DNA of 64,000 nt from Candidatus Omnitrophota bacterium (GTDB taxonomy: Bacteria > Omnitrophota > Gorgyraeia > 1-14-0-20-64-10): contig JAHFFE010000003.1 of the NCBI GenBank assembly GCA_023248155.1, forward strand, positions 80,042 to 144,041, given 5' to 3'. The notes under the pieces are model-generated. The model saw only the letters and a program-made list of their open reading frames with translations, had not been told where the DNA came from and did not search any database. How positions within the stretch are numbered: the first letter of the stretch is position 1; the number at the start of each line of letters is the position of its first letter. The position numbers and the translations under genes are program-made. Shown piece after piece: positions 20,188-59,119 of the stretch.

Positions 20188-21123
20188 ATGCGCGCTGTTG
20201 TTACCGGAGGGGCGGGGTTTATCGGGTCGCACCTTTGCACTCGGCTGCTGCGTGACGGCAATTCGGTCCTCTGTATCGATAATTTCCTGACAGGGCAGGA
20301 GGCCAATATAACGCCTCTGCGCGCCAACGCCCAATTTTCGTTCCTGAATCACGATGTCAGCGAGCCGATTTCCGTTGAGGGCCCGGTCGATCTCATTTTT
20401 CATCTGGCTTCCGCGGCCAGCCCGATCCATTACCAGAAATACCCCATTCAAACACTGAAAGTCGGTTCGCTCGGAACGCATCACGCGCTGGGTCTGGCTA
20501 AATCGAAAAAATCGGCGTTCTTCCTGGCTTCGACAAGTGAAGTGTATGGAGATCCTCTGGTCAATCCGCAGCCGGAAAGTTACTGGGGCAATGTGAACCC
20601 GGTCGGTCCGCGCGGCGTTTACGATGAAGCCAAGCGGTTCGCCGAAGCGATGACGATGGCTTATCACCGGGTTCATGGCGTTAACACGCATATCGCGCGC
20701 ATTTTTAATACGTTCGGCCCGCGCATGCAGGAAGAGGATGGCCGCGTGGTGCCGGCTTTTATCACGCAGGCGCTTACGAACAAACCGCTGACGGTATTCG
20801 GCGACGGCAGTCAGACCCGTTCATTCTGCTATGTGGATGATCTGGTGGAGGGAATCCTGCGGCTGGTCAAGTCGGATGCGCATGATCCGGTGAACCTGGG
20901 TGTTCCGAGCGAGATGACTGTTCTTCAAATCGCGCAAAAGATCATTCAATTGACCGGATCAAAAAGCGTGATCGAATACCGGACGCTTCCAGTGGATGAT
21001 CCTAAAGTACGCCGGCCGGATATCACGCGCGCGCGGCAGCTGCTGGGCTGGGAACCTACGCATCCGCTCGACGACAGTCTGCGCGCCACGATCGCCTACT
21101 TTAAGTCCCGCCTTTCGCGATGA
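20188..21123 (+). CDS. uxs: UDP-glucuronate decarboxylase (UDP-xylose synthase)
   Basis: [24 protein letters not shown] and [11 protein letters not shown] closely parallel UXS1 ([22 protein letters not shown]…[11 protein letters not shown]). The ATG at 20188 lies 1 nt after the upstream stop. Confidence 0.85.
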
Positions 21124-22412
21124 GCCTTCTGGAAGAAATCATCCGGCCCGGCATCTGGATTCTTTTGGGAACGGCGCTGGTCAATGTCGCCAACTTGCTC
21201 TATCAGATTGGCATGGTCCGCTTTCTTTCTCCGGTACAATACGGCGAGCTCAACGCGCTGATGGCATTTCTTGTGGTGATCACCGTTCCGGCCTGCACCG
21301 CGCAAACTACCGTATCGCAGACTGTTTCGCAGCAACTCGCACAAAAAGATCTTTCGCGCATCCATCTGTTTATCCGAAAAATGCTGGCAACCTTCGGCTT
21401 ATTTGGAATTGCCGGGTTTGCGGCGGTGGTTATTTTCCGGCATTCAATTGCCGATTTTCTGCAGCTGGATGATCCGGGTCTTATTTTACCCTGGGGAGCA
21501 GCGGCATTCTTCTTTTTGATTGCGCCGGTTGCGCTGGGATCGTTGCAGGGCCTACAGCAATTTTTCTCGTTCGGCGCCAATACGGCGCTGGGCGGAATTT
21601 TAAAATTAACACTGGGAATCGCGGCGGTCTGGATGGGGCGGGGTGTGTTGGGTGCCATGAATGCGTTTTGGATCGGCGCGCTGCTGACGCTGGCGATCGC
21701 GCTAATCCAGCTGAACGGCGCTTTGTATCGAATGAAGCCGGTGCCGTCCGAACGGCAAGAGAAAGGCTGGCTGCTGTTTTTCAGCGGGTGGATGGAAGAG
21801 GCAGTCGGCGTACTGCGCAGTTCGTGGCGCGTGCCGCACTACACGGCCTGGGCCGCGGCCGGAATTTTTTCGTACACCTGCCTGACCAACCTCGATGTCG
21901 TGCTGGCCAAACATTATCTGGAACCTCAGCAGGCCGGCTATTACGCCATTTCAGCAATGGTGGCGCGCATGGTGCTGTTTTTGCCGTCGGCATTTTCAAT
22001 CATCTTTTTTCCGAAGGTGGCCTATGCCGCCGCGCGCGGGGAACCAACGCAGCCGCTGCTGACTAAAATTCTGACAATCACGGCATTGCTCAGCGGCGCC
22101 GGAGCTGCGCTGCTGTTTTTCATGCCGGCGCTGGGGCTGTCCATATTGACGGGTAAAGCACATTCGGATTGTTTGTCACTGGTACGGATTTTATCCGCGG
22201 GAATGCTCGGCATGGCATTGGCCAACGTGGGACTGGTGTATCTGCTGGGCGTTCAAAAAGTCCGCAAAATAATTCCTTATCTGATCGGAGCGGCCGCGCA
22301 GGCCGCCGGAATCGTCCTGTTTCATCAATCGGCGTTGTCGGTGGCTTGGGTGACTTCATCGATCGCATGGCTGCTGGCACTCTACGCATTCTGGGTGGCC
22401 CGCCGTGGATAA
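21120..22412 (+). CDS. Polysaccharide flippase/transporter (Wzx-like, MOP superfamily)
   Basis: 430 aa with ~12 predicted hydrophobic helices. It sits among glycan genes. Confidence 0.6.
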
Positions 22413-23160
22413 AGCGCTGGAGATTTCAATCGTAATGCCGGCCTACAATGAGGCCTCGCACATTATTCCCAGCATTCGCGAGACCGCCAAAACATTTGAC
22501 GGATTCGGCTGGGATTATGAAATTATCACCGTCGACGACGGAAGCAGTGACGACACCTACAAACACTTGAATGAACTGGCCCGGGAAAACAAACGGATCG
22601 TTCCGGTTCATATTCCAAAAAATGCCGGCAAAGGCAACGCGCTTCGCCAGGGGTTTAAGTCGAGCACGAAAGGGGATCTGGTTGTTTTTCTTGATTGCGA
22701 TCTGGATCTGCATCCGCGGCAAGTCGAGACGCTTGTGCAAATCATGAAACGGACCGGCGCCGATATTGTCATTGGCGCAAAGAGGCATCCCCGGTCAGTC
22801 GTAGAATATCCCTGGCACCGCCGTATCATCAGTTCCATCTATTTTTTTGTTGTTCAAATTTTATTTGGAATGCCTCTGCGAGATACGCAAACAGGGCTAA
22901 AACTGTTCCGCCGGGAAGTGCTCGAAAAAGTTCTGCCGAAACTGCTGGTCAAGCGGTGGGCATTTGATTTGGAACTGCTGGCGCTGGCCCATTATTATGA
23001 ATACCGCATCGCGCACGCACCGGTGATCATTCAATCGCAGCGCGACCGAAGCCGGATTCCAATGACCGCAATGATTCATATGTGCATGGACACCGTAGCC
23101 GTTTTTTACCGCCTGAGAATCATGCGTTGGTACCAGAAACAGGACGATTTTCACGCCTGA
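22405..23160 (+). CDS. GT2-family glycosyltransferase (DPM1-like)
   Basis: SIVMPAYNE, TVDDGSSD and a DCDLD (DxD) motif. Confidence 0.8.
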   Translation: MDKALEISIVMPAYNEASHIIPSIRETAKTFDGFGWDYEIITVDDGSSDDTYKHLNELARENKRIVPVHIPKNAGKGNALRQGFKSSTKGDLVVFLDCDLDLHPRQVETLVQIMKRTGADIVIGAKRHPRSVVEYPWHRRIISSIYFFVVQILFGMPLRDTQTGLKLFRREVLEKVLPKLLVKRWAFDLELLALAHYYEYRIAHAPVIIQSQRDRSRIPMTAMIHMCMDTVAVFYRLRIMRWYQKQDDFHA

Positions 23161-23181: not shown

Positions 23182-24711
23182 ATGAAGATCGCTGTTGCTT
23201 ATGCCCCCATCGAGTCTCCCAAAGGAACCGCTCTGCTTTCGCAGAACCGGCAATTTCAGTATTTTAACGCGCCCACTTATATCTATCCGATGGTCCCGGC
23301 CTATGCGGCAACCCATTTAAAATCAAAAGGTTACGATGTGGTCTGGATGGATGCCATCGCGCAGCGCAAGACCTACGCGCAATTTTTGGAAGAGCTGGAG
23401 CATGAGAAGCCGGACCTGATCATGATGGAAACCAAAACGCCGGTGATCAAGAAGCATTGGAAGCAGATTACCGATCTGAAGGCTCGGTTTCCTGAGATGA
23501 AAATTGTGCTGGTGGGCGACCATGTGACCTGGAACCCCGAAGAAACGCTGCGCGCTTGTCCCGTTGATTACATCCTGACCGGCGGCGATTATGATTTTGC
23601 GATCGTAAATCTGGTGCGCGCGCTGGAAGGCCGCGAAGATATGGAAGGCGGCGTTTACTGGAAAGAAGGCGACCAGATAAAAAATTCCGGCGCGATGAAG
23701 CTGAAAACGCACAAGCTGGACGATCTGCCGATGGTCGACCGAGATCTGACGCAGTGGAAAAATTACGCCTATCATAACGGCAACTACAAATATTTTCCCG
23801 GAACTTACATGTACACCGGCCGCGACTGCTGGTGGAACCGCTGCACCTTCTGTGTATGGGATCACACGCTCTATCCGCAGGGGACTTTCCGCGCGCACTC
23901 TCCGGAACGGGCGCTCGATGAAGTCGGGCATTTAATCGAGAAGTACGGCGTTAAAGAAATCTTTGATGACTGCGGAACGCTGCCGATCGGCGCCTGGCTC
24001 AAGAAATTCTGCGAAGGAATGATCGAGCGGGGCTATCACAAGAAAGTCCGCTACGGGTGCAACATGCGCGTGAACGCATTGACGCAGGCGGAATACGACC
24101 TGATGGGCAAGGCGCGATTCCGGTTTATTCTCTACGGCATTGAATCGGGTAACCAGAAGACGCTGGATATGCTCGATAAGGGCTGCAAGGTTGAAGAGAT
24201 CGAGCAGGGCCTTAAGATGGCCAAGCAGGCCGGACTTGAACCGCACATCACCGTGATGATGGGCTATCCGTGGGAAGATGCCGCCGATTCACAGCGGACC
24301 GTTGATCTGACGCACCGGCTTTTCCGGAAAGGGTATGTTGATACGCTGCAGGGAACGATCGTGGTTCCGTATCCGGGCACGCCGCTCTATAAATTATGCA
24401 AAGAGAAGGGCTGGCTGAAAACCGAGGATTGGGACCGGTACGATATGCGCGAATCGGTGATGCTCAATCCCGTGACGGACGAACAGATTCGCGCGTTCAC
24501 GCAGGATCTTTACAAATCATTCATGAGTCCGCAGTTTATCAGCCGAAAATTAATGTCGATCCGTTCGCTGGATGACATGAAGTTCTTCGCAATCGCCGGA
24601 AAAAAATTCGCGGGACATTTGCTGGACTTCAAGAAGAAGCAGCCGGCTTACCTGGCCGATCAGTCCAGCAGCCATACGCCCGCGATGCCGGTATCGCAAA
24701 CCGCCGCATAA
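23182..24711 (+). CDS. B12-binding-domain radical SAM enzyme
   Basis: An N-terminal cobalamin-binding Rossmann-like domain, then a radical-SAM cluster motif CWWNRCTFC (Cx4Cx2C). 509 aa. Confidence 0.8.
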   Translation: MKIAVAYAPIESPKGTALLSQNRQFQYFNAPTYIYPMVPAYAATHLKSKGYDVVWMDAIAQRKTYAQFLEELEHEKPDLIMMETKTPVIKKHWKQITDLKARFPEMKIVLVGDHVTWNPEETLRACPVDYILTGGDYDFAIVNLVRALEGREDMEGGVYWKEGDQIKNSGAMKLKTHKLDDLPMVDRDLTQWKNYAYHNGNYKYFPGTYMYTGRDCWWNRCTFCVWDHTLYPQGTFRAHSPERALDEVGHLIEKYGVKEIFDDCGTLPIGAWLKKFCEGMIERGYHKKVRYGCNMRVNALTQAEYDLMGKARFRFILYGIESGNQKTLDMLDKGCKVEEIEQGLKMAKQAGLEPHITVMMGYPWEDAADSQRTVDLTHRLFRKGYVDTLQGTIVVPYPGTPLYKLCKEKGWLKTEDWDRYDMRESVMLNPVTDEQIRAFTQDLYKSFMSPQFISRKLMSIRSLDDMKFFAIAGKKFAGHLLDFKKKQPAYLADQSSSHTPAMPVSQTAA

Positions 24712-24721
24712 ACGAATCCGA

Positions 24722-27568
24722 ATGCGGATAGTAATCTTTAACTGGCGGGATGTCCGCAATCCGCTGGCCGGCGGCGCCGAAGTGCTGATGCAGGAATCGG
24801 CGCGCCGCTGGATCGCAGAGGGGCATTCGGTTTCCTGGATCACCAGCCGTTTTCCCGGATCATCCGAACAGGAAACGATCGACGGCGTTCAGGTTTTTCG
24901 TACTGGAAATTCCCGCTCCGTCTACTGGAAAGCGGCCCGCCTGTTTAAACAAAAATTCGCCGGGCAATGCGACCTGGTCATCGATACCGTCAACACGCTT
25001 CCGTTTTTTACGCCCTGGTTTGTCAAAGAGCCAATCGTCATGCATTTCAACCAGCTGGCGCGCGAGGTCTGGTTTTACGAATGCCTCTGGCCGATGGCCG
25101 TGGTTGGGTTCATTCTGGAGCCGCTCTGGCTGAAAATCTACCGCAAGATTTATACGGTAACAATCTCGCGCAGTTCGCGGCTGGATCTGCTGCGGCTCGG
25201 ATTTGATCGGGCACAGGTGCAATTGCTGCCGATGCCGACAAAACCGTATTCGGCTCCCACGACCGATGCGCGCGCCCAAACACCAACATTTATTTATCTG
25301 GGACGGCTGAAGCGATCCAAGCGGGTTCATCATGCCATTATTGCGTTTGCCCGCGTGCATGCCCGGATTCCGAATTCGCGGCTCTGGATCGTCGGCGACG
25401 GTGACCGCTCTTACCGGACTTACCTGAAAAAAATGGTTGAACGCCTGGACCTGGGCCCCTCAGTTACTTTTTTTGGCCAAGTGCCGGAACAGAAAAAAGA
25501 ACGCCTGCTTCAGGAAGCCCACGCGCTCGTGGTTCCTTCGGTACGTGAAGGATGGGGAATCGTTGTTAATGAAGCCAACTCCAAGGGAACACCCGCTATT
25601 GTTTATCCGGTGCCGGGACTGGTCGATTCAATCGATAATCAGGTGACGGGACTGGTTTGTCGGGAACCGACTCCGCGCGCATTGGCCGATCAGATGATTG
25701 ATATGGCGGAAAACAAGGCGCTCTGGAAACGCTTGAGTACGCCCGAGAATTTTTCGAGACCGGCTGTTTCATGGGATGACACGGCCCGGAGTTATCTGCA
25801 ATTTCTCAAATACCGGATGGGCGAAAAGCCTGCGCCGGCCAGTTTCTCAAAATTGTCGATCGTCATTCCGGGCTGTCTTTGGAACGGAACGGTTCGAAGC
25901 GGAGTTCAGGAAGCAGCCCAGCTCGCGGATACGCTGCAGGGAAAGTATGAACTTCTGATCGTAGCCGATCTTTCCGATGACCGGCTGCAGTCTCTTCTGA
26001 AGCAGCGGGGAATTGCGGAAGATAAAATCCGACAGATCGCTCCGGATCGCTTCCTTGGAGAATCGTACTCGCTGGTATTGGCCGCGCGCAAGGCCTCGGG
26101 AGACATGCTGCTGTATGTAGACCCCAACGCGGATATCGCGACAGGCGAATTGCTCGGGTTGATTGAATCATGGAAAGAAACACCGACCGATCTGGTGGTC
26201 GCTTCACGGCGGCACAGTGAAGACTGGCGGCGGCGTCCCTGGTTGTGGCGATTTTTTTCCGATGCCTATCACTCGGCGGTTCGCCGGCTTTTTGGCGCGG
26301 AAATGGGCGATGTGCAGACCGGAATTAAACTGTTCCGCACCCCAATTCTCCGGCAGGTGCTGCAGCGGCTCGTGGTTAAGGAATACGCATTCGATATGGA
26401 GCTGCTGGCTGTTGCGCACCGGTCCGGATTTACAATCGCGGTTTGTCCGATCCGCGTACTGCAGGGAACGCCTCAGCGCCGGGCACATCTGCTGGATATG
26501 TTTCATCTGTTCATGGATACGCTTTCGATCTGGTACCGAATGTTCTGTTTGCGCTATTATGACCGGCCGATCATTGTCCTTCCGCCCAAGCGCACGGTTT
26601 CCATCGTAATTCCGTGCAAAGCGCCAACCCCTTACTTAACGGAATGTTTGCAGGCTTGCTCCGAACTGGATTATCCGAAAGAGTTAATTCAGATCATTGT
26701 GCTGACCGATGAACCGGCAACGCTTCCGTCTCCGCAGGCAGTTTGCGTTCCCAGCGGACCGGTCGGGCCGGGGAAGAAACGGGATATGGCGCTTGCGCAT
26801 TGCACCGGAGAGATCGTGGCATTTATTGATGATGACACCATTCCGCGGTGGGACTGGCTGCGGAACGCCATGCGCTGGTTTGAAGACGAACGGATTGGAG
26901 CGGTAGGCGGTCCGGCGCCGACGCCGGCGACCGATTCTCTGCGCCGCGCCGCCAGCGGAGCGGTTTATTCATCCTGGCTGGTCGCAGGAACGCAAAGCTA
27001 CCGCTATTTTCCGGCAGTCGGACGCTGGGTGGATGATTATCCTTCGTGTAATTTATTTATCCGAAAAGAAGTGCTGACGCAAGTGGGTGGATTCGATACG
27101 GCATTTTGGCCAGGGGAAGACACGATTCTCTGCGCCAAAATTACGCAGGATCTGAAAAAGAAAATCTGGTATGACCCGGACGCGGTGGTTTATCATCACC
27201 GCCGGGCGCTGTTCCGCGGCCACCTCTATCAGATCCAGAGGTACGCCGAGCACCGCGGTTATTTTGTGAAACGATACCCGGCGACCTCGCTGCGGGTTCC
27301 TTATTTTTTGCCGTCCTGTCTGGTCTTTTTCTTTATCTTTGGCGCTTTGCTCGCGGTGATGTTTCCGCCGTTAAGGATTACATACGCAGCGATCGTGCTG
27401 GCTTATCTGACACTCGTAATGCTCTGGGCCGCGCTAAGTCTGAATATCCGGATGGCCGCGCTGGTTTTTCTTGGAATTATTGCAAGCCATTGGGCCTATG
27501 GGATCTATTTTTTAAAAGGTCTTCTGTCAACATCTATGGCCGAGGAGTTTAAGCGTGAACCTGTCTAA
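24722..27568 (+). CDS. Tri-domain glycosyltransferase fusion (GT4 – GT2-like – GT2, C-terminal TM helices)
   Basis: N-terminus with the GT4 EGWGIVVNEANSKGTPAI (E-x7-E) motif. A middle GT2-like domain carries DMELLAVAH. The C-terminal GT2 has SIVIPC…, DDD and a hydrophobic tail. Confidence 0.75.
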   Translation: MRIVIFNWRDVRNPLAGGAEVLMQESARRWIAEGHSVSWITSRFPGSSEQETIDGVQVFRTGNSRSVYWKAARLFKQKFAGQCDLVIDTVNTLPFFTPWFVKEPIVMHFNQLAREVWFYECLWPMAVVGFILEPLWLKIYRKIYTVTISRSSRLDLLRLGFDRAQVQLLPMPTKPYSAPTTDARAQTPTFIYLGRLKRSKRVHHAIIAFARVHARIPNSRLWIVGDGDRSYRTYLKKMVERLDLGPSVTFFGQVPEQKKERLLQEAHALVVPSVREGWGIVVNEANSKGTPAIVYPVPGLVDSIDNQVTGLVCREPTPRALADQMIDMAENKALWKRLSTPENFSRPAVSWDDTARSYLQFLKYRMGEKPAPASFSKLSIVIPGCLWNGTVRSGVQEAAQLADTLQGKYELLIVADLSDDRLQSLLKQRGIAEDKIRQIAPDRFLGESYSLVLAARKASGDMLLYVDPNADIATGELLGLIESWKETPTDLVVASRRHSEDWRRRPWLWRFFSDAYHSAVRRLFGAEMGDVQTGIKLFRTPILRQVLQRLVVKEYAFDMELLAVAHRSGFTIAVCPIRVLQGTPQRRAHLLDMFHLFMDTLSIWYRMFCLRYYDRPIIVLPPKRTVSIVIPCKAPTPYLTECLQACSELDYPKELIQIIVLTDEPATLPSPQAVCVPSGPVGPGKKRDMALAHCTGEIVAFIDDDTIPRWDWLRNAMRWFEDERIGAVGGPAPTPATDSLRRAASGAVYSSWLVAGTQSYRYFPAVGRWVDDYPSCNLFIRKEVLTQVGGFDTAFWPGEDTILCAKITQDLKKKIWYDPDAVVYHHRRALFRGHLYQIQRYAEHRGYFVKRYPATSLRVPYFLPSCLVFFFIFGALLAVMFPPLRITYAAIVLAYLTLVMLWAALSLNIRMAALVFLGIIASHWAYGIYFLKGLLSTSMAEEFKREPV

Positions 27569-30500
27569 GCAAAAAGCTGTTTTCTGGATAAGCCTCGGGA
27601 TTATTTTGTTTTGGGGAATGATCGTTCTGACCTGGTTTAAGCCGGGCCATTTTATTATGGGGCCGGATCTTCATGTGCCGGTCGATATGCACCGGTGGCT
27701 GCGTCAATGCTGGGCATGGAACGACGAGTGGGGAACAGGCCAGGAATGGAGCGTCGGTTTTTCGAATCTGATTTTTTCGGCGGTCTCGGCCGCTGTTTCA
27801 CTCATGACACCGTCGCTGCTGTTCGTTCAGCGAATGCTGTTTGTCTTCTGGTTCGTTCTCCCGGGGCTGACCTGTTTTGCGCTCGCAATGGAACTGGTTC
27901 CCGATCCGAAGAAGTGGGCGTTCCGTCTGGGCATGGTCAATTTTTACATGTTCAACTTGTACCTTCAGGCGCTGTGGGGAGGGAATGAGGCGGGACTGGG
28001 CGCCTACGCGGCGCTGCCGCTAATGATGATGCTTTATCTGCGAGGTTTGCGGACGCGCCGTCTTTTGTTCCACGCGCTTCTATTGGGTCCGACGTCGCTG
28101 CTGCTTTCATCGGCAAGCATGAATATCCCATTAATGGTGGTAGTCTTCATGGCCTGCGGAATTTTTATTCTGGTCTATATCATCCGCGAACAGGTTTACC
28201 GTTCTATCTCCGAAATTTTTAGGCTTCTGATCTACACCGCCGGCGCCGCATTGCTGATGCTTTTATGCAACACATTCTGGGCGCTTCCGCAGCTGCTCGT
28301 CAATACGACAAAAATCCAGGTGCCCGCCTATTCAACCAGCATGATGGCCGAGGCCAGGGGCTGGCTCTATGGAATGAGCAGCGATACAAGCCTGGCCAAT
28401 ATTTTCCGCATGCAGGGGGACTGGACCTGGTATCAGGGGTGGTACGAACCGTACCGCAATTATGCGGCGTTCTACCGGCACAATCCCTGGATGATCGCCT
28501 TAAGCTGGTTCATTCCGGCAATCGTTCTGGTCGGCGCTTTCGTCAGCCGTCAACGGCTGAAAGCGGCGTTCATACTTTTTGCGGTGCTCGGCGTGATTCT
28601 GGGAACCGGCGTCCATGCGCCATTTGAAGCAACCTATCTCTGGCTCGTCGATCATCTTCCGTTCTTCTGGGTTTTTCGCAGTCCCTGGTTTAAGTTCACG
28701 ATTCTGACCTGCCTGGGCTATGCCTTTTTGTTTGGGGAAGGGGCCGAATATCTGGCCGGTCTCATCGGAAAAAACAGGCCGCGCCTGCTGATTTTTTCGT
28801 TCGGTGTATTGCTGGCCGCCAATATGCTGTACGCATTTCCGATCACTTTCGGAAAAATGCATCCCACGGCAGCCGAGCGGCTGAAACTAAAACCGGTTCA
28901 TATCGCCATGCCCTCGTATGAATACGACCTGGCCCGCTGGGTGAACCAGCAACCCGGTTTTTTCAGAGTTCTTTTTATGCCGCTGCGAATGAATTCCACC
29001 TCGGTCTATCCGTGGGGTCTTTCCAGTACAGCACCGGCCGCTTATCCGTTTTTGCGGAAGCCGTTCCTGTTTGATAATTGGGGATCGGCCACCGATTTCG
29101 GAAACCGGCTGACGGGTCTTTTCTGCCGGGCCGTCTATGGACCACGATCGCTGGATGCCACGCGGATCGCTCAGATGATGGGGGCGCGTTATCTGATCCA
29201 GGAGAATGATTTCGATTACGATTATTACGAAGCAACCCCCAACTATCCGTTTTTCGGTGATACGCCCGAGTTTGTGCGGCAACGGCTGGCGCAGCAGAAA
29301 GGACTTCGACTGATCCAGTCATTCGGTCCGCTGGAAATTTATGAAATCGCATCTCCGCGGAACCGATTTGAGTCCGCCTCCAAAGCGGTTGCCGTGCTGG
29401 GACCGCTGGAAAGCATGGCCGATATCGCCGATACTGATCTTCTGCAGGAAGGAAAAGCGCTTATTTTTCTGAATGGCTTGGAAGGGGAGAAAGCGCTTGA
29501 TGCGCTGGAGCGGCTCAATGAATTGGGAATGCTGGATTCCGTCGTTACCGTCGGCCTGCCCGACCCCGAACATCAGGCGCTGGCCAAAAAATGGTCGCAG
29601 AAAGCCTCGTCTGTTTTTGTTTTGCAAACCACTGAAGGTTTCAAGCCGCTGCTTGAAAAGAATCCGTCTGATCTGGTGCCGATTTCCGGAATCAGCGCGC
29701 GGTGGCTGGGCGGGCTTTCAGACGCTGAAGGGTTGGACAACGGAACGGGATGGAAGTGGGTGGAGACCAACCAGAAGGAATCGTTCGCGCATGTGGAACT
29801 GTTCAATGCGCTCGATCATCCGGTCCGCATCAATCTGGGGCTGAATATCCGCTCGTACCAGCGGATGCGGGATCTTTTTCTGTATATGAATGGGGAACTT
29901 TTCACGCCCGCACCGAGAATACTGGCCAATGATCCTCAGGAACTTTTGCTGTCGGAATATATTCTTCCGCCCGGAAAAACGAGCGTGCGGTTTTATACGC
30001 CGTATCAAACCGATCCGTATGGAAATCTTTCTGTCACCTTCGCCGTTCAGCCCGGTTCACTGCGGATCGGCCTGTTGACATACCAGGGCAGCGCCTGGAT
30101 TCCCAACGCAGGATCGTATCAGGTGGTCGTGCAGGCGATTCCTATTCCGGAAACAGTCAGCGGTTCTTTGGAAATGCGCGTCGGTGATGATTCTGTCGTA
30201 TTGCAGGCCGACCCGGAAAATAAGCGCTACGTCGCCAACGACCTTTCATTAAAAGAGGGGATTGTTCCGATTTCTCTCATGCAAAAAACCGTGGGAGGCC
30301 ATTACAGGATCCGCTTCTTCCGCACAAGTTCCGCCGCCGGTCAGGCCGTTGAACCAATGCCGGTACTGAAGGAACTCAAATCGACCCCGGTCCATCATGA
30401 GGTTGCTTTTGAAAATCAGGCGCCGGCGATTTTCATTTTCCATGATTCCTATTTTCCGCTCTGGCAGGCGGCCGACAAAACCACCGGCGAAAAATACAGC

Positions 30501-30680
30501 CGTCATTTTATCGTCAACGGTTTTGCGAACGGATTTCTGGTCGAACGACCGGGAAAGCATCAGGTAGAGATTTCCTACCAGGTTCAGCAGCGGTTTGAGG
30601 TCGGGTGGCGCGTGGCGCTGGCGACAACAATTTTTTGTCTGATCGGCGCCTTGTTTCTAATAAAAAGGACAAATAAATAA
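27555..30680 (+). CDS. Large GT-C-fold membrane glycosyltransferase, AftD/YfhO-like (paralog 1 of 3)
   Basis: 1041 aa. It has an N-terminal polytopic domain with conserved QGDWTWYQGWYEPYRNYAAFY and HAPFE…LPFFWVFRSPWFKF segments. A large beta-rich extracytoplasmic domain follows. The C-terminal motif is SYFPLW…HFIVNGFANGF followed by one TM helix. These features are shared with the other two paralogs. Confidence 0.55.
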   Translation: MNLSKQKAVFWISLGIILFWGMIVLTWFKPGHFIMGPDLHVPVDMHRWLRQCWAWNDEWGTGQEWSVGFSNLIFSAVSAAVSLMTPSLLFVQRMLFVFWFVLPGLTCFALAMELVPDPKKWAFRLGMVNFYMFNLYLQALWGGNEAGLGAYAALPLMMMLYLRGLRTRRLLFHALLLGPTSLLLSSASMNIPLMVVVFMACGIFILVYIIREQVYRSISEIFRLLIYTAGAALLMLLCNTFWALPQLLVNTTKIQVPAYSTSMMAEARGWLYGMSSDTSLANIFRMQGDWTWYQGWYEPYRNYAAFYRHNPWMIALSWFIPAIVLVGAFVSRQRLKAAFILFAVLGVILGTGVHAPFEATYLWLVDHLPFFWVFRSPWFKFTILTCLGYAFLFGEGAEYLAGLIGKNRPRLLIFSFGVLLAANMLYAFPITFGKMHPTAAERLKLKPVHIAMPSYEYDLARWVNQQPGFFRVLFMPLRMNSTSVYPWGLSSTAPAAYPFLRKPFLFDNWGSATDFGNRLTGLFCRAVYGPRSLDATRIAQMMGARYLIQENDFDYDYYEATPNYPFFGDTPEFVRQRLAQQKGLRLIQSFGPLEIYEIASPRNRFESASKAVAVLGPLESMADIADTDLLQEGKALIFLNGLEGEKALDALERLNELGMLDSVVTVGLPDPEHQALAKKWSQKASSVFVLQTTEGFKPLLEKNPSDLVPISGISARWLGGLSDAEGLDNGTGWKWVETNQKESFAHVELFNALDHPVRINLGLNIRSYQRMRDLFLYMNGELFTPAPRILANDPQELLLSEYILPPGKTSVRFYTPYQTDPYGNLSVTFAVQPGSLRIGLLTYQGSAWIPNAGSYQVVVQAIPIPETVSGSLEMRVGDDSVVLQADPENKRYVANDLSLKEGIVPISLMQKTVGGHYRIRFFRTSSAAGQAVEPMPVLKELKSTPVHHEVAFENQAPAIFIFHDSYFPLWQAADKTTGEKYSRHFIVNGFANGFLVERPGKHQVEISYQVQQRFEVGWRVALATTIFCLIGALFLIKRTNK

Positions 30681-30682
30681 CG

Positions 30683-32197
30683 ATGAACTGGCTGATCGGA
30701 ATCGCCGTAACAGGATTAAGCTTCCTTCTGCAGGTAAGGCCGCGCCTGATCAAAAAAGCGTTTGGCGTTGATTCATGGCGGCATTTGGATGAAGCCGATT
30801 ATATCCGCCGGTTCCGCCATCTTCCGCGCGGAATGGCGGAACGGTATTTAATCGATAAACCGTCTGATTATCCGCCGTTTTTGCGGATTGTTCTGGCGCT
30901 GGTCCCCAAAAAAATGCTGGAACAATTTGAGTGGATGGTTGCCCCGATCTTCGACGCGTGCCATATTCTGTTGTTATTCGGAGCCGTTTTGATCTGGACC
31001 GGGCGGGTGGAAATGGCTGTCTGCGCGCAGCTGACGTACGCGCTCAGTCCATTGGTGATCATGGAGAATTCCAATTTGACGACGCGCTCGTTCGCGTCGC
31101 TTCTGTTCACGCTGGGCTGGCTGCCGCTGATGCTTTATCGGGCCGGGCAGGGTACCGAATGGCTGGCCGCCGGTATTTTCTTTTTGGCTGTTCTTTTTCT
31201 GACGCACCGGCTGGCATTGCAGGCGCTCTTTTTTCTTTCGATTGCCTGGTCGATTTTTGAAAAAACCTGGTTCTTTGCCGGAGCCATTTCAACGGCGATT
31301 TTTGCGGCGATGATTTTCTCGGGCGGATTTTATCTGAAAGTGCTCTGGGGCCAGCTGACGATGCTGAACTATTGGAGAATCAACAGCAAGAACCGGTTTG
31401 CCCATCAGATCCGCGGCCTGCCGAAATCCAGCGAACAGGAACCGGATATTGTTTTTCGCATCTATCAGACAATTCGCAAAGCGCCGTTCCTCGCGATTAT
31501 GGGAGCGAATCCATTTATGGTCTTTCTGCTGCCATGGCTTTTTCATCCGGAATGGCTTCATCAGGATCTATTTGGAATTCCGGCCATGGTATTGTCGCAA
31601 TTTTTCTTCTGGGCCTGCGCGCTTTGGGTGATCGGTCTGATCATCCGGCAATGGGAACCGGTTCGTTTCATGGGAGAAGGGGAACGCTACCTGGAATATG
31701 CCTGTTTTCCAACAGCCGTTCTCACAGCTGTTTTACTGGCCAGACAATCGTCAGAACCCGGATTCCTGTTATGGATCGCGGCCTTCGCGGTTGTGGCGAT
31801 CGCCGGCGGATTGATTCCGGGGATATTCCTGCAGCAACAGGTGATCGTTCAAGATACGGAACGTTCTGTAACGCCGGTGCTGCAAAAGGTTTTCGATGAA
31901 TTGAATCGGATGCCGGACGAAGTCAGGATTTTCACCATTCCGCTTTATCTGGCCAGCGCCACGGTTCATTTCACGAAAGATCGTGTGAAGGTTTTGACGA
32001 CCGACAGTTCGTATGCCCATTTGACTGATCTGAAAGATATTCTGCCCGTTTTAAAAATTCCTCTGTCCGAAGTAAGCCAACGGTACCGGTTGACCCATAT
32101 GTTAATCAGTGAACGGTATGTAACGCTAAGCGAACTCGGACTTTCAGAAAAACAGCTGATCTTACGCTCAGGTCAGTTTTGTCTTCTCACGCTATGA
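30683..32197 (+). CDS. Polytopic membrane protein of unknown function (possible glycan polymerase/GT-C)
   Basis: 504 aa with many hydrophobic helices and no recognisable catalytic motif. Confidence 0.4.
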   Translation: MNWLIGIAVTGLSFLLQVRPRLIKKAFGVDSWRHLDEADYIRRFRHLPRGMAERYLIDKPSDYPPFLRIVLALVPKKMLEQFEWMVAPIFDACHILLLFGAVLIWTGRVEMAVCAQLTYALSPLVIMENSNLTTRSFASLLFTLGWLPLMLYRAGQGTEWLAAGIFFLAVLFLTHRLALQALFFLSIAWSIFEKTWFFAGAISTAIFAAMIFSGGFYLKVLWGQLTMLNYWRINSKNRFAHQIRGLPKSSEQEPDIVFRIYQTIRKAPFLAIMGANPFMVFLLPWLFHPEWLHQDLFGIPAMVLSQFFFWACALWVIGLIIRQWEPVRFMGEGERYLEYACFPTAVLTAVLLARQSSEPGFLLWIAAFAVVAIAGGLIPGIFLQQQVIVQDTERSVTPVLQKVFDELNRMPDEVRIFTIPLYLASATVHFTKDRVKVLTTDSSYAHLTDLKDILPVLKIPLSEVSQRYRLTHMLISERYVTLSELGLSEKQLILRSGQFCLLTL

Positions 32198-35100
32198 TTT
32201 CAAAACGGAAATTAGATTGGCTGGAGTTGGGACTGTTACTGATAATGTCCCTCATTCCGCTCATCTGGTTCCGCCACGGTGCATTTCTCGCCTCGGCCGA
32301 TACGCTCTTGCCGCAAACGTGGGCAGACAATCTGGAGTTTCTCGGCCCCTGGAACCGCCACCTCGGTACCGGGACACTCTACATTTTTGACGGGGCCGCA
32401 TTTTTATTTAATCTGCTTCCGGCGATAGTATTGCGGTTAGGAGGTTCTCTCTTGCAGGCGCAGGTGGTTGAATTCTGTTTCTGGTACGGCCTGGCCCTTT
32501 TCAGCATGAATGGAATGATGCGCCTGGTTTATCAGGGAGCTTATCCACGCCTGGCCCGGATTGCCGCCACTGTTTTTTATGCGTCCAACTTTTATGTGGC
32601 CCCGATCTGGACCGGATTCAATAAACCGAACATTGTTCTTTATGCTGTGTTTCCTCTTTTCCTGGCCGGCACTATTCGCATGCTGGAGGGCGAGGGGCGC
32701 CGGCTTTTCCTGCTCGTTTGCCTCGCGCTCTTTTCCATTCTTGCTTCTGCCGTAGGAACCAACACGCCGATTGTCGGCGTCGCCTGGGTCGGATTAGGCG
32801 TCACAACCGTCGTACTGCTGATTTCCAATTTGAGAGCAGGCAAGATTGCGTTATTCGGTAAAAATTTATTAAGCGTGGCACTATTGGTTGCAGCGATCGC
32901 CTGCCTGCACGCATTTTGGATTCTTCCGCAAATTTGGGGAGGATTGACCAGCGCGTCAACGCTTCCGCTGGAAGCGGCGAGGACTCAGTCGCTGGCCTGG
33001 CTGGACGGAATCAGCCGGATGACCAGTTTCTGGAATGTGCTCCGGATTCAGGGAGACTGGTCCTGGTACAGCGGCGTCGGAGATCCGTATGTGCTCTATG
33101 CGGCCCGCTATCTGCATAATCCATTCTGGATTATTTTAAGCTGGTCAATCGCAGGGTTGATGCTGACCGGTATTTGTACAGCCGGAAAAAGAAAAGGGGT
33201 TTTTCTGGCACTGCTGTTGTCCGGACTTTTCTTAAGTATGGGCACGCATCCGCCGACCGGCTGGATTTTCCGATGGGCAGTCATGCATTTGCCGGGTTTC
33301 TGGATGTTCCGAAGCGCTTGGTTCAAATTCATGCTGCTGACCTGCGTGGCCTACGCATTTTTTCTGGGGGCAGGAGTTGCCTGGGCCTGTCAGCGCTTTC
33401 AGCGCTATTCGGCGCGGCGGATCGGCCTGCTGGCGATTTTTCTGATCGCTCTCTACGGAGTTCCGGTCATTGCGGGAACCATGTTCCCAACCGCAAAAGA
33501 CCGGGCAATACTGCCGCCGCTTCAATTCAAAACGCCTGCTTACGTGATACAAACAGCCGAATGGTTCAGAAACCGGCCCGATACCGAACGGGTTTTTGTG
33601 CTGCCCGGCACCGGTGTCGACACGACTCGGTGGGGGTATGCCGGTTTCTTCCCTTATATCCGTTATCTGACCAATCAGCCTTTTGTGTATGCATTTGAAC
33701 CGGCGTTTCAGATGCTGTCGCAAGGAGGGCCTCATCCATCCATCTCAATGATTCTGGATATCCGGCAGGGATTCAATGTCTACGGCGGGGAACTTTCGCC
33801 GCGCATGGACCGGCTGCTGGCGCTTCTGGGCGTGCGCACCATTCTTCATGAAGGTGACTATCGTTACGAACAACTTCCTCAGCACGATACGCCCGAGCAG
33901 ATGCGCGCCCGAATCCTTCGCCATCCGGCCATCACCGCTGTGAAACAATTCGGTCCCTGGGAACTTTATGCAGTCCCCGGAACGCTGCCGCACTGGTTCA
34001 CAGCGAAACAGGCCGCCTGGATTTCCGGGGATTCCAGACAAACGCTTCAGCTCAGCCGTTCTGCATGGTTTGACCGTACAATTCTTTGCTGGGACCGCGA
34101 TATTCCGGCCTCAATAAAAGAAACGCTTTTGAAAAACAATTTTATCCGGCGATCGGTTTTTCTGGAAGGCTCAGCAGCAGGTGAAACGATCCCGGAAGGA
34201 TTCGATGGAGCAGTTTCCCTGATTTTCTCGACGGATAAATCATCCGATCCTGAAAATCTGGTGAGCCGCTGGCCGCCGCGTCTGGAGAAAAACGGAATCC
34301 GGTGGGAGTGGGCGGAAGGATCGAGCTGGCAGAAAAATTCCGATCCGGAATGGCGCTGGCTTGTTTCCGGAAATAATGAGTCGCTTGTCGTATGGAATCC
34401 GCATCCGTGGCCCGTGGCGGTGATGCTCTGCTGTGAAATCAAAACGGCCGGCGGGGTTCCCCGGACACTTTACTTTTTTATGAATGACAAAGCGATCACG
34501 CTGGACAAGGAAAACATATCGCAAACAATCCGGGTCGGCGAAACGATTCAAAAAGTTCTTATCCCGCGAATACCGCTTCAGCCCGGACGAAACGCAATAC
34601 GGCTTGCAACCACCGAACCGTCAATCCGTCAGCCGGAGGCATTACCCGGAGAACCGCAGGAACTTTCGTTTGCATTCCGCGATATTCAATTGGGAGATCC
34701 GGTGATTGAGGCCGTCCAGCACCTGCCGCGCGAGGGCAATTACCGGCTGATTATTTACCCGCAATTTAACGGCGCGGTGTCCGACAGGGAAACCGTCTAT
34801 TTTAAAAATATGCGAACCATCCGGCTGAACGGGCAGCCGGTTTCGTGCACGCTTAAGCAGGATGATTTTAAGTTGCGCTACTGGGAATCCGGTGCCATCG
34901 CACTTCCAAAAGGACCGCTCACAATAGAGATCGGTCCCTATATGGGAGAGCATTATTTATTTGAAATCACCGACGAAGCCGGTCCGGCAGGCGGCGAACT
35001 TGGCAGCGTCAAAGTAAAAAGAGAATCACCGGCATCCTATCGGGCATCGATTGAATTGACGGCGCCCAAGATTTTAGTGTTTAATGAATCGTTCAATCCC

Positions 35101-35328
35101 GGCTGGACGGCCAGCCGCATCGCGCCGGACGGGACCCGCTCGGCCGTCGGGGACCATTTCAAGGCAAATGGTTTCGCAAACGCCTGGGTTATTCCCGAGG
35201 GGACTTACACACTCCATCTGGAATTCGCTCCAAAACGATGGTGGAAACTGGGGCAACAGATCTCTCTTGTAACCGCCGCGGGACTGTTGCTTCTTCTCGC
35301 GGGACTGCTTTTACTGCGGAGGATTTAG
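32179..35328 (+). CDS. Large GT-C-fold membrane glycosyltransferase, AftD/YfhO-like (paralog 2 of 3)
   Basis: 1049 aa. It has QGDWSWYSGVGDPYVLYAARY and HPPTGWIFRWAVMHLPGFWMFRSAWFKF. The C-terminus is SFNPGW…HFKANGFANAW plus a TM anchor. Confidence 0.55.
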   Translation: MSSHAMISKRKLDWLELGLLLIMSLIPLIWFRHGAFLASADTLLPQTWADNLEFLGPWNRHLGTGTLYIFDGAAFLFNLLPAIVLRLGGSLLQAQVVEFCFWYGLALFSMNGMMRLVYQGAYPRLARIAATVFYASNFYVAPIWTGFNKPNIVLYAVFPLFLAGTIRMLEGEGRRLFLLVCLALFSILASAVGTNTPIVGVAWVGLGVTTVVLLISNLRAGKIALFGKNLLSVALLVAAIACLHAFWILPQIWGGLTSASTLPLEAARTQSLAWLDGISRMTSFWNVLRIQGDWSWYSGVGDPYVLYAARYLHNPFWIILSWSIAGLMLTGICTAGKRKGVFLALLLSGLFLSMGTHPPTGWIFRWAVMHLPGFWMFRSAWFKFMLLTCVAYAFFLGAGVAWACQRFQRYSARRIGLLAIFLIALYGVPVIAGTMFPTAKDRAILPPLQFKTPAYVIQTAEWFRNRPDTERVFVLPGTGVDTTRWGYAGFFPYIRYLTNQPFVYAFEPAFQMLSQGGPHPSISMILDIRQGFNVYGGELSPRMDRLLALLGVRTILHEGDYRYEQLPQHDTPEQMRARILRHPAITAVKQFGPWELYAVPGTLPHWFTAKQAAWISGDSRQTLQLSRSAWFDRTILCWDRDIPASIKETLLKNNFIRRSVFLEGSAAGETIPEGFDGAVSLIFSTDKSSDPENLVSRWPPRLEKNGIRWEWAEGSSWQKNSDPEWRWLVSGNNESLVVWNPHPWPVAVMLCCEIKTAGGVPRTLYFFMNDKAITLDKENISQTIRVGETIQKVLIPRIPLQPGRNAIRLATTEPSIRQPEALPGEPQELSFAFRDIQLGDPVIEAVQHLPREGNYRLIIYPQFNGAVSDRETVYFKNMRTIRLNGQPVSCTLKQDDFKLRYWESGAIALPKGPLTIEIGPYMGEHYLFEITDEAGPAGGELGSVKVKRESPASYRASIELTAPKILVFNESFNPGWTASRIAPDGTRSAVGDHFKANGFANAWVIPEGTYTLHLEFAPKRWWKLGQQISLVTAAGLLLLLAGLLLLRRI

Positions 35329-55308: not shown

Positions 55309-56491
55309 ATTGGGATTTTTGCAGATCAGCGATACGGCAAAAGCCAATGTGGCGGAAGCGCTCAATAACAACCGGCTTTCCACCGGAAAATTCATTCAGG
55401 AATTTGAGCGGCTGTTTGCCGCGGCGCATGGATGCAAGCATGCGATCTTCTGCAACAGCGGAACCAGCGCTCTGCAGATCGCATTAGCCGCGCTCAAAGA
55501 AAAATACAATTGGGCGGATGGCGATGAGGTCCTGGTGCCGGCGCTCACATTCATCGCCAGCAGCAACATCATTCTACAAAACAACCTGAAACCGGTTTTC
55601 GTCGACGCCGATCCGGTCTATTACAACATCGATCCGCTTCAAATTGAACGGCACATCACGCCGCGCACGCGCGCCATAATCCCGGTTCATCTGTTTGGAC
55701 AGTCCTGCGACATGGATCCGATCCGCGCCATCGCCAAGAAACGGAATTTGAAGATCCTCGAGGATTCCTGTGAAACCATGTTCGCCCGTTATAAAAACGA
55801 ATGGGTCGGTTCGATGGGGGACCTGGCCTGTTTTTCAACCTATGTCGCGCACCTGCTGGTGACCGGCGTAGGCGGCCTGGTCACCACCAATTCTGACGAG
55901 CTGGCGCTGATGTCGCGCAGCATCATGGCGCACGGCCGGGATTCCATTTATCTGACAATCGACGACGATGATAATTTGAAAGACAATCAGGCGCTGCGCC
56001 GCATCATCGAGCGCCGCTTCTCGTTCGTCCGCATGGGCTACAGTTTCCGGGGAACCGAGCTGGAAGGGGCGCTCGGTGTCGCCGCGATGCAAAGCAAAGA
56101 CGCCATGATCGCGCGCCGCAGGGAAAACGGCCGGATCCTGACTGAAAAATTAAAGTCGTTGGAAGAGTACTTGCAGCTTCCCAAAATTCTTCCGGGAGCC
56201 GAGCATTCGTTTATGATGTTCCCGGTCGTGCTCAAGCCCGGCCTGGACCGCGGCGCTTTCCTGGATTATCTGGAAACCAACGGCATCGAAACCCGCTACC
56301 TGATGCCGCTGTTAAGCCAGCCTTACTACCGGGAGCGGTTCGGTCCGATCGAAAACGATTATCCGGCCGCCAAGCATTTGAGCGGGCAAGGTTTTTACAT
56401 CGGCTGCCACCAGGGATTAAAAACCGAAGACCTCGATTACATCGCGCATGTCTTTGCCGAATATTTCAGGCATGCCAAACTTCCTGCCTAA
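55295..56491 (+). CDS. DegT-family PLP-dependent aminotransferase, ArnB-like
   Basis: AIFCNSGTSALQIAL, VPALTFIASSN. Lies directly downstream of the arnC-like gene. Confidence 0.75.
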   Translation: MRRIELGFLQISDTAKANVAEALNNNRLSTGKFIQEFERLFAAAHGCKHAIFCNSGTSALQIALAALKEKYNWADGDEVLVPALTFIASSNIILQNNLKPVFVDADPVYYNIDPLQIERHITPRTRAIIPVHLFGQSCDMDPIRAIAKKRNLKILEDSCETMFARYKNEWVGSMGDLACFSTYVAHLLVTGVGGLVTTNSDELALMSRSIMAHGRDSIYLTIDDDDNLKDNQALRRIIERRFSFVRMGYSFRGTELEGALGVAAMQSKDAMIARRRENGRILTEKLKSLEEYLQLPKILPGAEHSFMMFPVVLKPGLDRGAFLDYLETNGIETRYLMPLLSQPYYRERFGPIENDYPAAKHLSGQGFYIGCHQGLKTEDLDYIAHVFAEYFRHAKLPA

Positions 56492-58286
56492 AATCGGGAC
56501 TCGCAAGTTTTTCGCAGGAATTCTTTTATTCATTTTCTTCCTGATTTTTTATGCGTTCTGGCTCTGGCCGCTGCCGATGGAAATGAGCCGCCGCATTTTG
56601 TATCTCACCAACCCCGGTGATGCGTTTAATTCCATATGGTCCACCTGGTGGTGGAAACATGCACATGAATTCGGCCAATCATTCTCCGATTGCCGCGTGG
56701 TTGGTTATCCGCTGGGCGTTCAACTTGGATTAAGCCCGGCGCAGCCGCTGCTGGAACCGTTTCTGCGCGGTTCGGCTTTTTTCCTTTCTGAAATCAGTGC
56801 GTACAATCTCTGGATTCTGCTGAGCGGCGCTCTCTCCGCGCTTTCGATGACCTGGCTGGCCTGGCTGCTGACGCGGGATCTGCCATCATCGGTGATTGCA
56901 GGGCTGGGGTTTCTCTGCGCGCCGTACCGGGCCGCCCATCTGCCGCAGATCGGACTGGCAGCGACTCATTGGATTCCGCTGACGCTGGCGACTTATTGGA
57001 ATGTAACTCAATCCGTCCGGCCGGCACGATGGGGGATTGGTCTGGGCATCGCGCTGGCCTGCACAGCGCTCTCCAATTATTATTACGGTTATGTGGCCGG
57101 AATAGTGCTGCTGCTGGCGCTGGTTTCTGATGGACTGCTGCGGATGCGCGCAGAACCGGCCGCTTATAAAAGAACGGTGCGCGCGGCGGCAACGGGAATA
57201 GTTCTGGCGGTTGTCATCGTCGGCGCGTTCGTGGCAGCCGCTCCTCAGGGTCTTTCACAAATATCAAAAGGACTTGCCGGTTATGCCCAGAAAGATCTTT
57301 TTGTTTTCTCGGCCAAACCGTGGGACTATCTGCTGCCGCCGGCGAACCATCCCTGGCTGGGCCGGTGGACGGGGCCGTTTATCCAATCCCATTTATACGG
57401 AAGTAATCTGACCGAACAAACGCTCTATCTGGGCTGGACATTACTGTTCTGCGCAATAATTCTGTTGTGGCTGCGCGCACGCAATAAACTTCCGGCAGAG
57501 CAGCAGACTGCCGTCGCCTGGTTGTCGCTGATCGCGCTGGGAGGAATTCTCTGGTCATTTCCTCCGTTTATCCCCATCGGGCCATTCGAAGTGATCAACA
57601 ACGAAATCATCTGCCGGTGGAAGTGGCCTTTTCCTTCTTATCTCATGCACCGGATTCTTCCGATGTTCCGCGTCTACAGCCGGTTCGGCATTATTCCGTT
57701 GATCGCGCTCTGCGCGCTGCTGGCCGTCGGGCTGGCTCAGCTTCGAAAAAAACAGGGGATGGTTCGCCGATGGGCTCTGCCCGCACTGGTCGCTCTCGTC
57801 ATGCTGGCGGAATTCAGCCTTCGGTTAACTACGTTTGACGCATCGGCCGTTCCGCCGGTGTACGAATGGCTGAAAAACCGGCCGGAAACCGGAGCCATTG
57901 TGGAATATCCGTGGCGCGAATCAACCCATTATGAAAATTACCGCTACCAGTTTTTTCAGCGGATTCACCGCCGGCCGATGCTCAATGGCGGCTGGCCTGG
58001 TTCTATGTCGGATAAAATCAGAATTCAATGCCGCAACATTGAGGATCCTGCCGTCGTTCCGATTTTGGAAAAATGGGGCGCGCGGTTCATCATCGTTCAC
58101 GCGGATGCGTATCGCTGGGACGAAGACATTCTGCCTTCTTCTTTTTCAGCGTTAGGGAAGTCATTCCCGATCAAGCCCAAACGGCTGCAGGAACAGCTCC
58201 CGCCGCCATCCAAAAACAGCAATCGCGCTCTGCGTTTAATCGCTGAATTTGGCGAGACCTGGGTTTACGAACCGGCTATCGAATGA
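56448..58286 (+). CDS. Polytopic membrane protein with C-terminal extracytoplasmic domain; candidate GT-C glycosyltransferase (ArnT-position)
   Basis: 612 aa. The N-terminal ~400 aa are highly hydrophobic and a soluble domain follows. It comes after arnC-like and arnB-like genes. No motif confirmation. Confidence 0.35.
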   Translation: MSLPNISGMPNFLPKIGTRKFFAGILLFIFFLIFYAFWLWPLPMEMSRRILYLTNPGDAFNSIWSTWWWKHAHEFGQSFSDCRVVGYPLGVQLGLSPAQPLLEPFLRGSAFFLSEISAYNLWILLSGALSALSMTWLAWLLTRDLPSSVIAGLGFLCAPYRAAHLPQIGLAATHWIPLTLATYWNVTQSVRPARWGIGLGIALACTALSNYYYGYVAGIVLLLALVSDGLLRMRAEPAAYKRTVRAAATGIVLAVVIVGAFVAAAPQGLSQISKGLAGYAQKDLFVFSAKPWDYLLPPANHPWLGRWTGPFIQSHLYGSNLTEQTLYLGWTLLFCAIILLWLRARNKLPAEQQTAVAWLSLIALGGILWSFPPFIPIGPFEVINNEIICRWKWPFPSYLMHRILPMFRVYSRFGIIPLIALCALLAVGLAQLRKKQGMVRRWALPALVALVMLAEFSLRLTTFDASAVPPVYEWLKNRPETGAIVEYPWRESTHYENYRYQFFQRIHRRPMLNGGWPGSMSDKIRIQCRNIEDPAVVPILEKWGARFIIVHADAYRWDEDILPSSFSALGKSFPIKPKRLQEQLPPPSKNSNRALRLIAEFGETWVYEPAIE

Positions 58287-59119
58287 GCGCCCATCCGCGC
58301 GTTTCACTCATTCTCGTTAATTACAACACCACCGACTGGCTTGCAAACTGCCTGGATTCATTAAAATCCGGACTGGATCTCCCGCATGAGATTTTCGTGG
58401 TCGATAACGCGTCAACCAACAGGGAAGCCATATCGGGCTTGATGGCTCTGCATCCAGAAGCCCGATTTATACAAAATGATTCCAACCGCGGATTCGCTGC
58501 GGCCAATAATCAGGCACTGCCGCTTTGTTCCGGAGACTGGATCTGGCTGCTTAACCCTGACACCAAAATCGGCGGCGGCTCATTACAACAATGGCTGGAA
58601 CCGCTGGAACAGGATCCAAAGATCGGGATCGCCGGCAACACGCTCCGTTATCCGGAAGGGCATATCCAGGTGTCGTGTGGAAAAATGCCCGGACTGGTTT
58701 CGGAATTCTTTCAGAAAAATTTCTGGAATAAAAAAGAAGCGAGCCCGGCCGGCCGGCAATGGCTGGAACGCTATGCGCAAACCGGACGGGAGGTTGACTG
58801 GGTGCTGGGCGCCAGCCTGTTTATCCGCCGGAAAACATGTGAAACCATCGGCCCGCTCGACGAACAGTTTTTTATCTATTTTGAGGAAACCGACTGGTGC
58901 GCGCGCGCAAAAAAAGCGGGCTGGAGCGTGGTCTACCAACCGGGATTTACCGTGATCCATTGGCGCGAACGGGCCACTTCGCAGAAACCCCGGGAAATGG
59001 GGCAGGCCTACCGGAAAAGTCAGCTTCTTTTCTACCGGAAACATCACGGAATAATTCAGGCCGCCGGGCTTGCGCTCTATTTGCGCATTAAATATGGTTT
59101 CAAAAGGGCTCTTCCATGA
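58283..59119 (+). CDS. GT2-family glycosyltransferase
   Basis: VSLILVNYNT, VDNASTN and NPDTKI motifs. Confidence 0.8.
   Translation: MSAHPRVSLILVNYNTTDWLANCLDSLKSGLDLPHEIFVVDNASTNREAISGLMALHPEARFIQNDSNRGFAAANNQALPLCSGDWIWLLNPDTKIGGGSLQQWLEPLEQDPKIGIAGNTLRYPEGHIQVSCGKMPGLVSEFFQKNFWNKKEASPAGRQWLERYAQTGREVDWVLGASLFIRRKTCETIGPLDEQFFIYFEETDWCARAKKAGWSVVYQPGFTVIHWRERATSQKPREMGQAYRKSQLLFYRKHHGIIQAAGLALYLRIKYGFKRALP

Follow-up and report, generated by a model that had tools for sequence, protein, structure and literature searches.

Known class B radical SAM enzymes

Most of what is known about class B radical SAM enzymes comes from the pathways of antibiotics, cofactors, pigments and lipids. GenD1, GenK and MoeK5 are cobalamin-dependent C-methyltransferases from antibiotic pathways of actinomycete secondary metabolism; close to glycosyltransferase steps, they place methyl groups on unactivated carbons of sugars. 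MoeK5 acts on the sugar of a phosphoglycolipid. Ring contraction has been shown for OxsB (PDB 5ul2-5ul4), a cobalamin-dependent non-methylase whose substrate is a sugar, deoxyribose, and has been proposed for HpnJ and calditol synthase. The proposed substrate of HpnJ is a hexose that the GT2 enzyme HpnI has placed on a membrane lipid, and published similarity networks show HpnJ in one cluster with the methylases Fom3 and MoeK5. The sugar diol-dehydratase AprD4 (PDB 6fd2; apramycin 1,2-diol dehydratase) does not bind cobalamin, and MgmA (PDB 9ccb), the methyl-coenzyme M reductase glutamine C-methyltransferase, has a protein as its substrate. The Cx4Cx2C spacing of the cluster cysteines has precedents in the literature for OxsB and GenD1, and a cobalamin role of the loop following β3 has been described for OxsB, TsrM and TokK.

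The enzyme described here, rSAM, belongs to a conserved envelope module of CPR bacteria and Chloroflexota, in contrast to the actinomycete setting of GenD1, GenK and MoeK5. It shares Cx4Cx2C with GenD1; these three enzymes were compared by literature description. The main reading of the data, with a probability of about 0.8, is that rSAM modifies a glycan or a lipid-linked sugar.

Gene neighborhood

The rSAM gene lies within a co-directional glycan-biosynthesis array of ∼50 kb in the window, which is the whole 64,000-nucleotide stretch of DNA analyzed. The array includes the following features.

21120-22412, plus strand: Wzx/MOP-type flippase-like membrane protein of 430 aa with ∼11 hydrophobic segments, by homology to Polysacc_synt proteins of related loci
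22405-23160, plus strand: GT2-A, a polyprenyl-phosphate glycosyltransferase-like GT2 of 251 aa, by Pfam and structure matches
23182-24711, plus strand: rSAM, a soluble class-B-type radical SAM enzyme of 509 aa; ORF with ATG start, Pfam B12-binding and Radical_SAM
24722-27568, plus strand: GT4 - GT2-A' - GT2-B fusion of 948 aa with C-terminal TM helices, by Pfam and TM segments
26576-27568, plus strand: GT2-B domain (aa 619-948 of the fusion), a membrane GT2, by orthologues and a structure match
27555-30680, plus strand: large polytopic membrane protein of 1041 aa with ∼10 N-terminal TM segments and a C-terminal anchor
32179-35328, plus strand: GT-C (AftD-like) membrane glycosyltransferase of 1049 aa, by PF11847 GT-C_AftD (31.1 bits; cut-off, 26) and TM topology

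The flippase-like ORF overlaps the start of GT2-A by 8 nt. The rSAM gene starts 21 nt after the 251-aa GT2 and ends 10 nt before the 948-aa fusion, so that the ORFs and Pfam matches bear out its placement by the first-pass annotation between a GT2 and a GT4-GT2-GT2 fusion. The nearest solved structures of GT2-A are ArnC, DPMS and GtrB, and its NCBIfam matches (ArnC, PgfS, PpgS and AglJ) are all below the cut-off. BLAST shows residues 376 to 616 of the fusion to be similar to GT2-A and residues 623 to 945 to be similar to GT2-B of other loci; the nearest solved structure of GT2-B is 6yv7, and its best NCBIfam match, MftF, scores 123 bits, below the cut-off. A Pfam scan of the 1041-aa protein gives no match. 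Its topology suggests a GT-C-like protein, a candidate periplasmic transferase using a lipid-linked donor, and in related loci, the sets of homologues of this protein and of the AftD-like protein overlap.

An identical protein and one with 98% identity are found in public assemblies, and homologues number in the thousands, which establishes rSAM as a real gene. Two overlapping ORFs on the opposite strand (23323-23931 and 23932-24246) are taken to be frame artefacts, since the plus-strand frame appears to be the conserved one.

Domain structure and active site of rSAM

The protein is composed of the following domains and motifs.

23182-23691, plus strand: N-terminal Rossmann (B12-binding-type) domain, aa 1-170, by PF02310, DSSP of the model and invariant residues
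23428-23442, plus strand: E83-T84-K85-T86-P87, the loop after β3, by translation and HMM alignment to OxsB
23515-23523, plus strand: G112-D113-H114, end of β4, at the "Gly-Gly" cobalamin-tail pocket position, by alignment
23581-23589, plus strand: G134-G135-D136, start of α5, at the "Gly-Glu" cobalamin-tail position, here Gly-Asp, by alignment
23803-24381, plus strand: radical SAM partial TIM barrel, aa 208-400, by PF04055 and the AF2 model
23827-23853, plus strand: [4Fe-4S] radical SAM cluster motif C216-x4-C221-x2-C224 (CWWNRCTFC), by translation and alignments
24478-24627, plus strand: C-terminal helical domain, aa 433-482, by DSSP of the model and full-length structural matches

Pfam places B12-binding (PF02310) on residues 33 to 132 with 38.5 bits (cut-off, 32.1) and Radical_SAM (PF04055) on residues 213 to 374 with 48.4 bits (cut-off, 29.5). 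The AF2 model (pLDDT 88.4, pTM 0.88) matches AprD4, MgmA, TsrM, CysS, TokK and OxsB over the full length. PF02310 and these matches show the order Rossmann domain, radical SAM barrel and C-terminal helices of the Rossmann-type class B architecture; together with the Cx4Cx2C core, this upholds the earlier assignment to class B. A scan of the 509 residues for hydrophobic segments shows none that passes. The Rossmann domain has a long conserved β1-α1 loop (aa 8-36) and a β-hairpin (aa 158-168) resembling the one described for OxsB, TokK and TsrM.

The three cluster cysteines are invariant in alignments of 16 and 72 homologues, in the latter along with ∼100 other positions, and some homologues carry inteins whose insertion points are precisely C216 and C224. 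OxsB shares the Cx4Cx2C motif in similar surroundings (RGCDYSRCTFCPRDH versus GRDCWWNRCTFCVWDH), and both enzymes carry an acidic pair at the position of the GGE motif in the barrel, where F261-D262-D263 aligns with A361-D362-E363 of OxsB. Beyond the cluster motif, only C277 and C406 are conserved cysteines in both alignments. An auxiliary Fe-S cluster is rejected, since two further cysteines are too few.

Alignment of the N-terminal domain to solved cobalamin enzymes is weak and shows variant contact motifs (E83-T84-K85, V111-G112 and G135-D136). The canonical GxSxL is altered to M-x-E-T-K, Gly-Gly to Val-Gly (V111-G112) and Gly-Glu to Gly-Asp (G135-D136). In a very weak HMM stretch of 4.4 bits, the invariant K85 falls on Asn186, which lies under the cobalt in OxsB. 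G112-D113-H114 aligns with GGPH of TokK and GGP of MgmA, and G112 and H114 are each kept in 71 of 74 distant relatives. The "Gly-Glu" column of these 74 sequences shows Gly in 66, followed by Glu in 50 or Asp in 17. A Rossmann fold by itself is no proof of cobalamin binding, because AprD4 has the fold and binds none. Judged from these sequence features, rSAM probably binds cobalamin. CPR bacteria are not known to synthesize cobalamin, and the family is commonest in CPR, which counts against cobalamin use and methylation.

Relation to described families

rSAM reaches no curated family cut-off. Its top HMM matches are the non-methylases HpnJ (TIGR03471; 169 bits versus a cut-off of 577.6) and BchE (TIGR02026; 125 versus 481). 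The HpnJ match is full-length (aa 32-475) with an identical domain order, and the proposed action of HpnJ on a hexose placed on a lipid by a GT2 parallels the setting of rSAM. The two differ in the cluster motif, which is Cx4Cx2C in rSAM and the canonical SRGCPxxCxFC in distant HpnJ-like relatives. Closeness to HpnJ is no argument against methylation, because HpnJ coclusters with Fom3 and MoeK5. Pfam/NCBIfam scans of the window proteins, which covered all but five ORFs at 56448-63936, show no hopanoid families (squalene-hopene cyclase, HpnH, HpnI and HpnK) and no photosynthesis families.

The best structural match is AprD4, with 15% identity; the AprD4 family NF033070 scores 37 bits against a cut-off of 500 and covers only the C-terminal half. 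MgmA shows 17 to 19% identity, and its profile TIGR04014 scores 67 bits against 360. Other weak NCBIfam matches are ApyD, RiPP C-methyltransferases, a ladderane-lipid enzyme and HpnR. Membership in HpnJ, BchE, AprD4, MgmA, PhpK, HpnR, BzaD or ArsL is rejected, with scores far under the cut-offs.

Distribution and conserved gene order

The rSAM family occurs in CPR/Patescibacteria, in Chloroflexota and sporadically in other phyla, in no fewer than 577 species-representative genomes. Its members are 58 to 75% identical, with ∼60% between CPR and Chloroflexota. Among complete CPR genomes, CP006914.1 and CP066689.1 carry the gene. The closest homologues (∼75% identity) are in MAGs labeled Handelsmanbacteria, Latescibacterota or Gemmatimonas. 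Functional names are absent from the 120 best homologue matches and from 10 more distant cluster representatives. Literature searches on the family, on radical SAM enzymes with CPR or Chloroflexi glycans and on CPR with cobalamin found nothing relevant and no published work on a family member in a conserved cell-surface glycan pathway. rSAM is not a locus-specific curiosity but represents a large, highly conserved, uncharacterised B12-type radical SAM family centered on CPR and Chloroflexota.

The most conserved partner is GT2-B: in 67 of 80 genome loci, an orthologue is encoded at most 5 kb away and on the strand of rSAM; a GT2-A orthologue is located upstream, within the same distance and on the same strand, in 56, and the loci lacking GT2-A or GT2-B are mostly truncated contigs. 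Different phyla retain the order GT2-A, GT2-B, rSAM, with 58 to 75% protein identity, and gene contexts were viewed singly for WWE3, Roizmanbacteria and Chloroflexi loci. Clustering of neighbor genes from 79 loci shows a flippase cluster in 58 and a small ferredoxin in 33, in 24 cases immediately upstream of rSAM. Like the two GT2 genes, the flippase gene is in most loci a same-strand neighbor of rSAM. PMT_2/TPR GT-C enzymes are found near rSAM in related loci. The CPR-type ferredoxin and a 161-aa membrane partner have no homologue within the window and are therefore regarded as lineage specific. Neither a partner reductase nor another accessory enzyme is conserved in the core module of the 79 loci.

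More distant relatives are also associated with glycosyltransferases. P0212 is a fusion of GT2, B12-binding radical SAM and GT4 domains, P0214 is a GT2-B12-radical SAM fusion, and loci of more distant relatives contain GT2, PMT/YfhO GT-C and NDP-sugar enzymes. The cross-phylum synteny with two GT2 proteins and a flippase, together with the relatives fused to glycosyltransferases, makes the glycan link well supported. Of the prediction by the first-pass annotation of a radical modification of a sugar or lipid-linked intermediate, such as C-methylation, it is this link that gains from synteny and fusions; C-methylation and cobalamin binding stay predictions, with no family cut-off reached and AprD4 as the best structural match.

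Proposed reaction and alternatives

The favored chemistry, put forward tentatively, is the cobalamin-dependent C-methylation of a polyprenyl-phosphate-linked sugar. From the data above, we infer the substrate, step order, cobalamin use and methyl transfer as follows. rSAM would be a soluble cytoplasmic enzyme that tailors a lipid-linked sugar during surface-glycan assembly. GT2-A, similar to ArnC, DPMS and GtrB, would place a sugar on polyprenyl phosphate, and the membrane-bound GT2-B would then extend the lipid-linked sugar. The [4Fe-4S] cluster, presumably held by C216, C221 and C224, would be reduced by the ferredoxin, which is encoded immediately upstream in many CPR genomes. Cleavage of SAM by rSAM would generate the 5'-deoxyadenosyl radical, which would abstract hydrogen from an unactivated sugar carbon. 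The substrate radical would most probably receive a methyl group from methylcobalamin in the N-terminal Rossmann domain, giving a C-methyl-branched sugar; the cobalamin would be bound base-off and His-off, with the invariant Lys85 under the cobalt. The Wzx-like flippase would export the modified intermediate, and the GT-C enzymes would pass it to an acceptor. The lack of a conserved reductase or accessory enzyme in the core module fits methylation by a single enzyme.

Nearly as likely as C-methylation is a non-methylating radical change of the same lipid-linked sugar, with or without the use of cobalamin. The sugar ring might contract to give a carbocycle or cyclitol, or the sugar might undergo 1,2-diol dehydration or deoxygenation as in AprD4, epimerization or oxidation. 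The resemblance to HpnJ, OxsB and AprD4 points in this direction, but all scores are far under the family cut-offs (HpnJ, 169/577.6; AprD4, 37/500), and HpnJ itself clusters with methylases. Dehydration of the AprD4 type requires a partner reductase, and unlike in the AprD4 system, no AprD3-like reductase is conserved beside the rSAM family. Ring contraction at the reducing end on polyprenyl phosphate would presumably abolish the glycosyl-donor function needed by the GT-C neighbors, and the N-terminal domain keeps residues of the superfamily-wide cobalamin motif.

A wider proposal, which we consider unlikely, builds on such chemistry. Here, the module of Wzx, GT2-A, GT2-B, ferredoxin and rSAM would make an undescribed C-branched, deoxygenated or carbocyclic envelope sugar, and in several CPR/Patescibacteria lineages as well as Anaerolineae-type Chloroflexota, the glycoconjugate would be of ancestral origin and present almost throughout. 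rSAM would act on a lipid-linked hexose by HpnJ/calditol-synthase-like or otherwise non-methylating chemistry, possibly without cobalamin.

It is improbable that rSAM acts on the polyprenyl or another lipid chain, as do HpnP/HpnR and the tetraether-lipid radical SAM enzymes, or on a peptide or protein, with the glycosyltransferases merely belonging to the same envelope-biogenesis operon. Many class B enzymes act on lipids or peptides, and the weak matches to ApyD, RiPP C-methyltransferases, the ladderane-lipid enzyme and HpnR agree with such a substrate. The conserved gene order and the covalent fusions to GT2 and GT4 domains argue against it, as does the result that no precursor peptide, RiPP recognition element or lipid-synthesis gene is conserved in the 79 clustered loci, six of them Pfam annotated. 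A degenerate or inactive homologue, as the Cx4Cx2C instead of Cx3Cx2C spacing might suggest, is hardly credible given the invariance across 72 homologues, the function of this spacing in OxsB and GenD1, the inteins that target exactly the cluster Cys codons and the dedicated ferredoxin that often adjoins rSAM.

Knowing the product of the C-methylation or alternative chemistry would bring to light a new sugar modification and, in organisms with almost unstudied surfaces, a conserved component of the envelope; it would also test whether CPR bacteria rely on scavenging cobalamin. The module is of a size that allows reconstitution in E. coli. Even CPR bacteria with reduced genomes retain the minimal lipid-linked glycan module of four genes to which rSAM is linked, and rSAM is among the most conserved proteins of its neighborhood.

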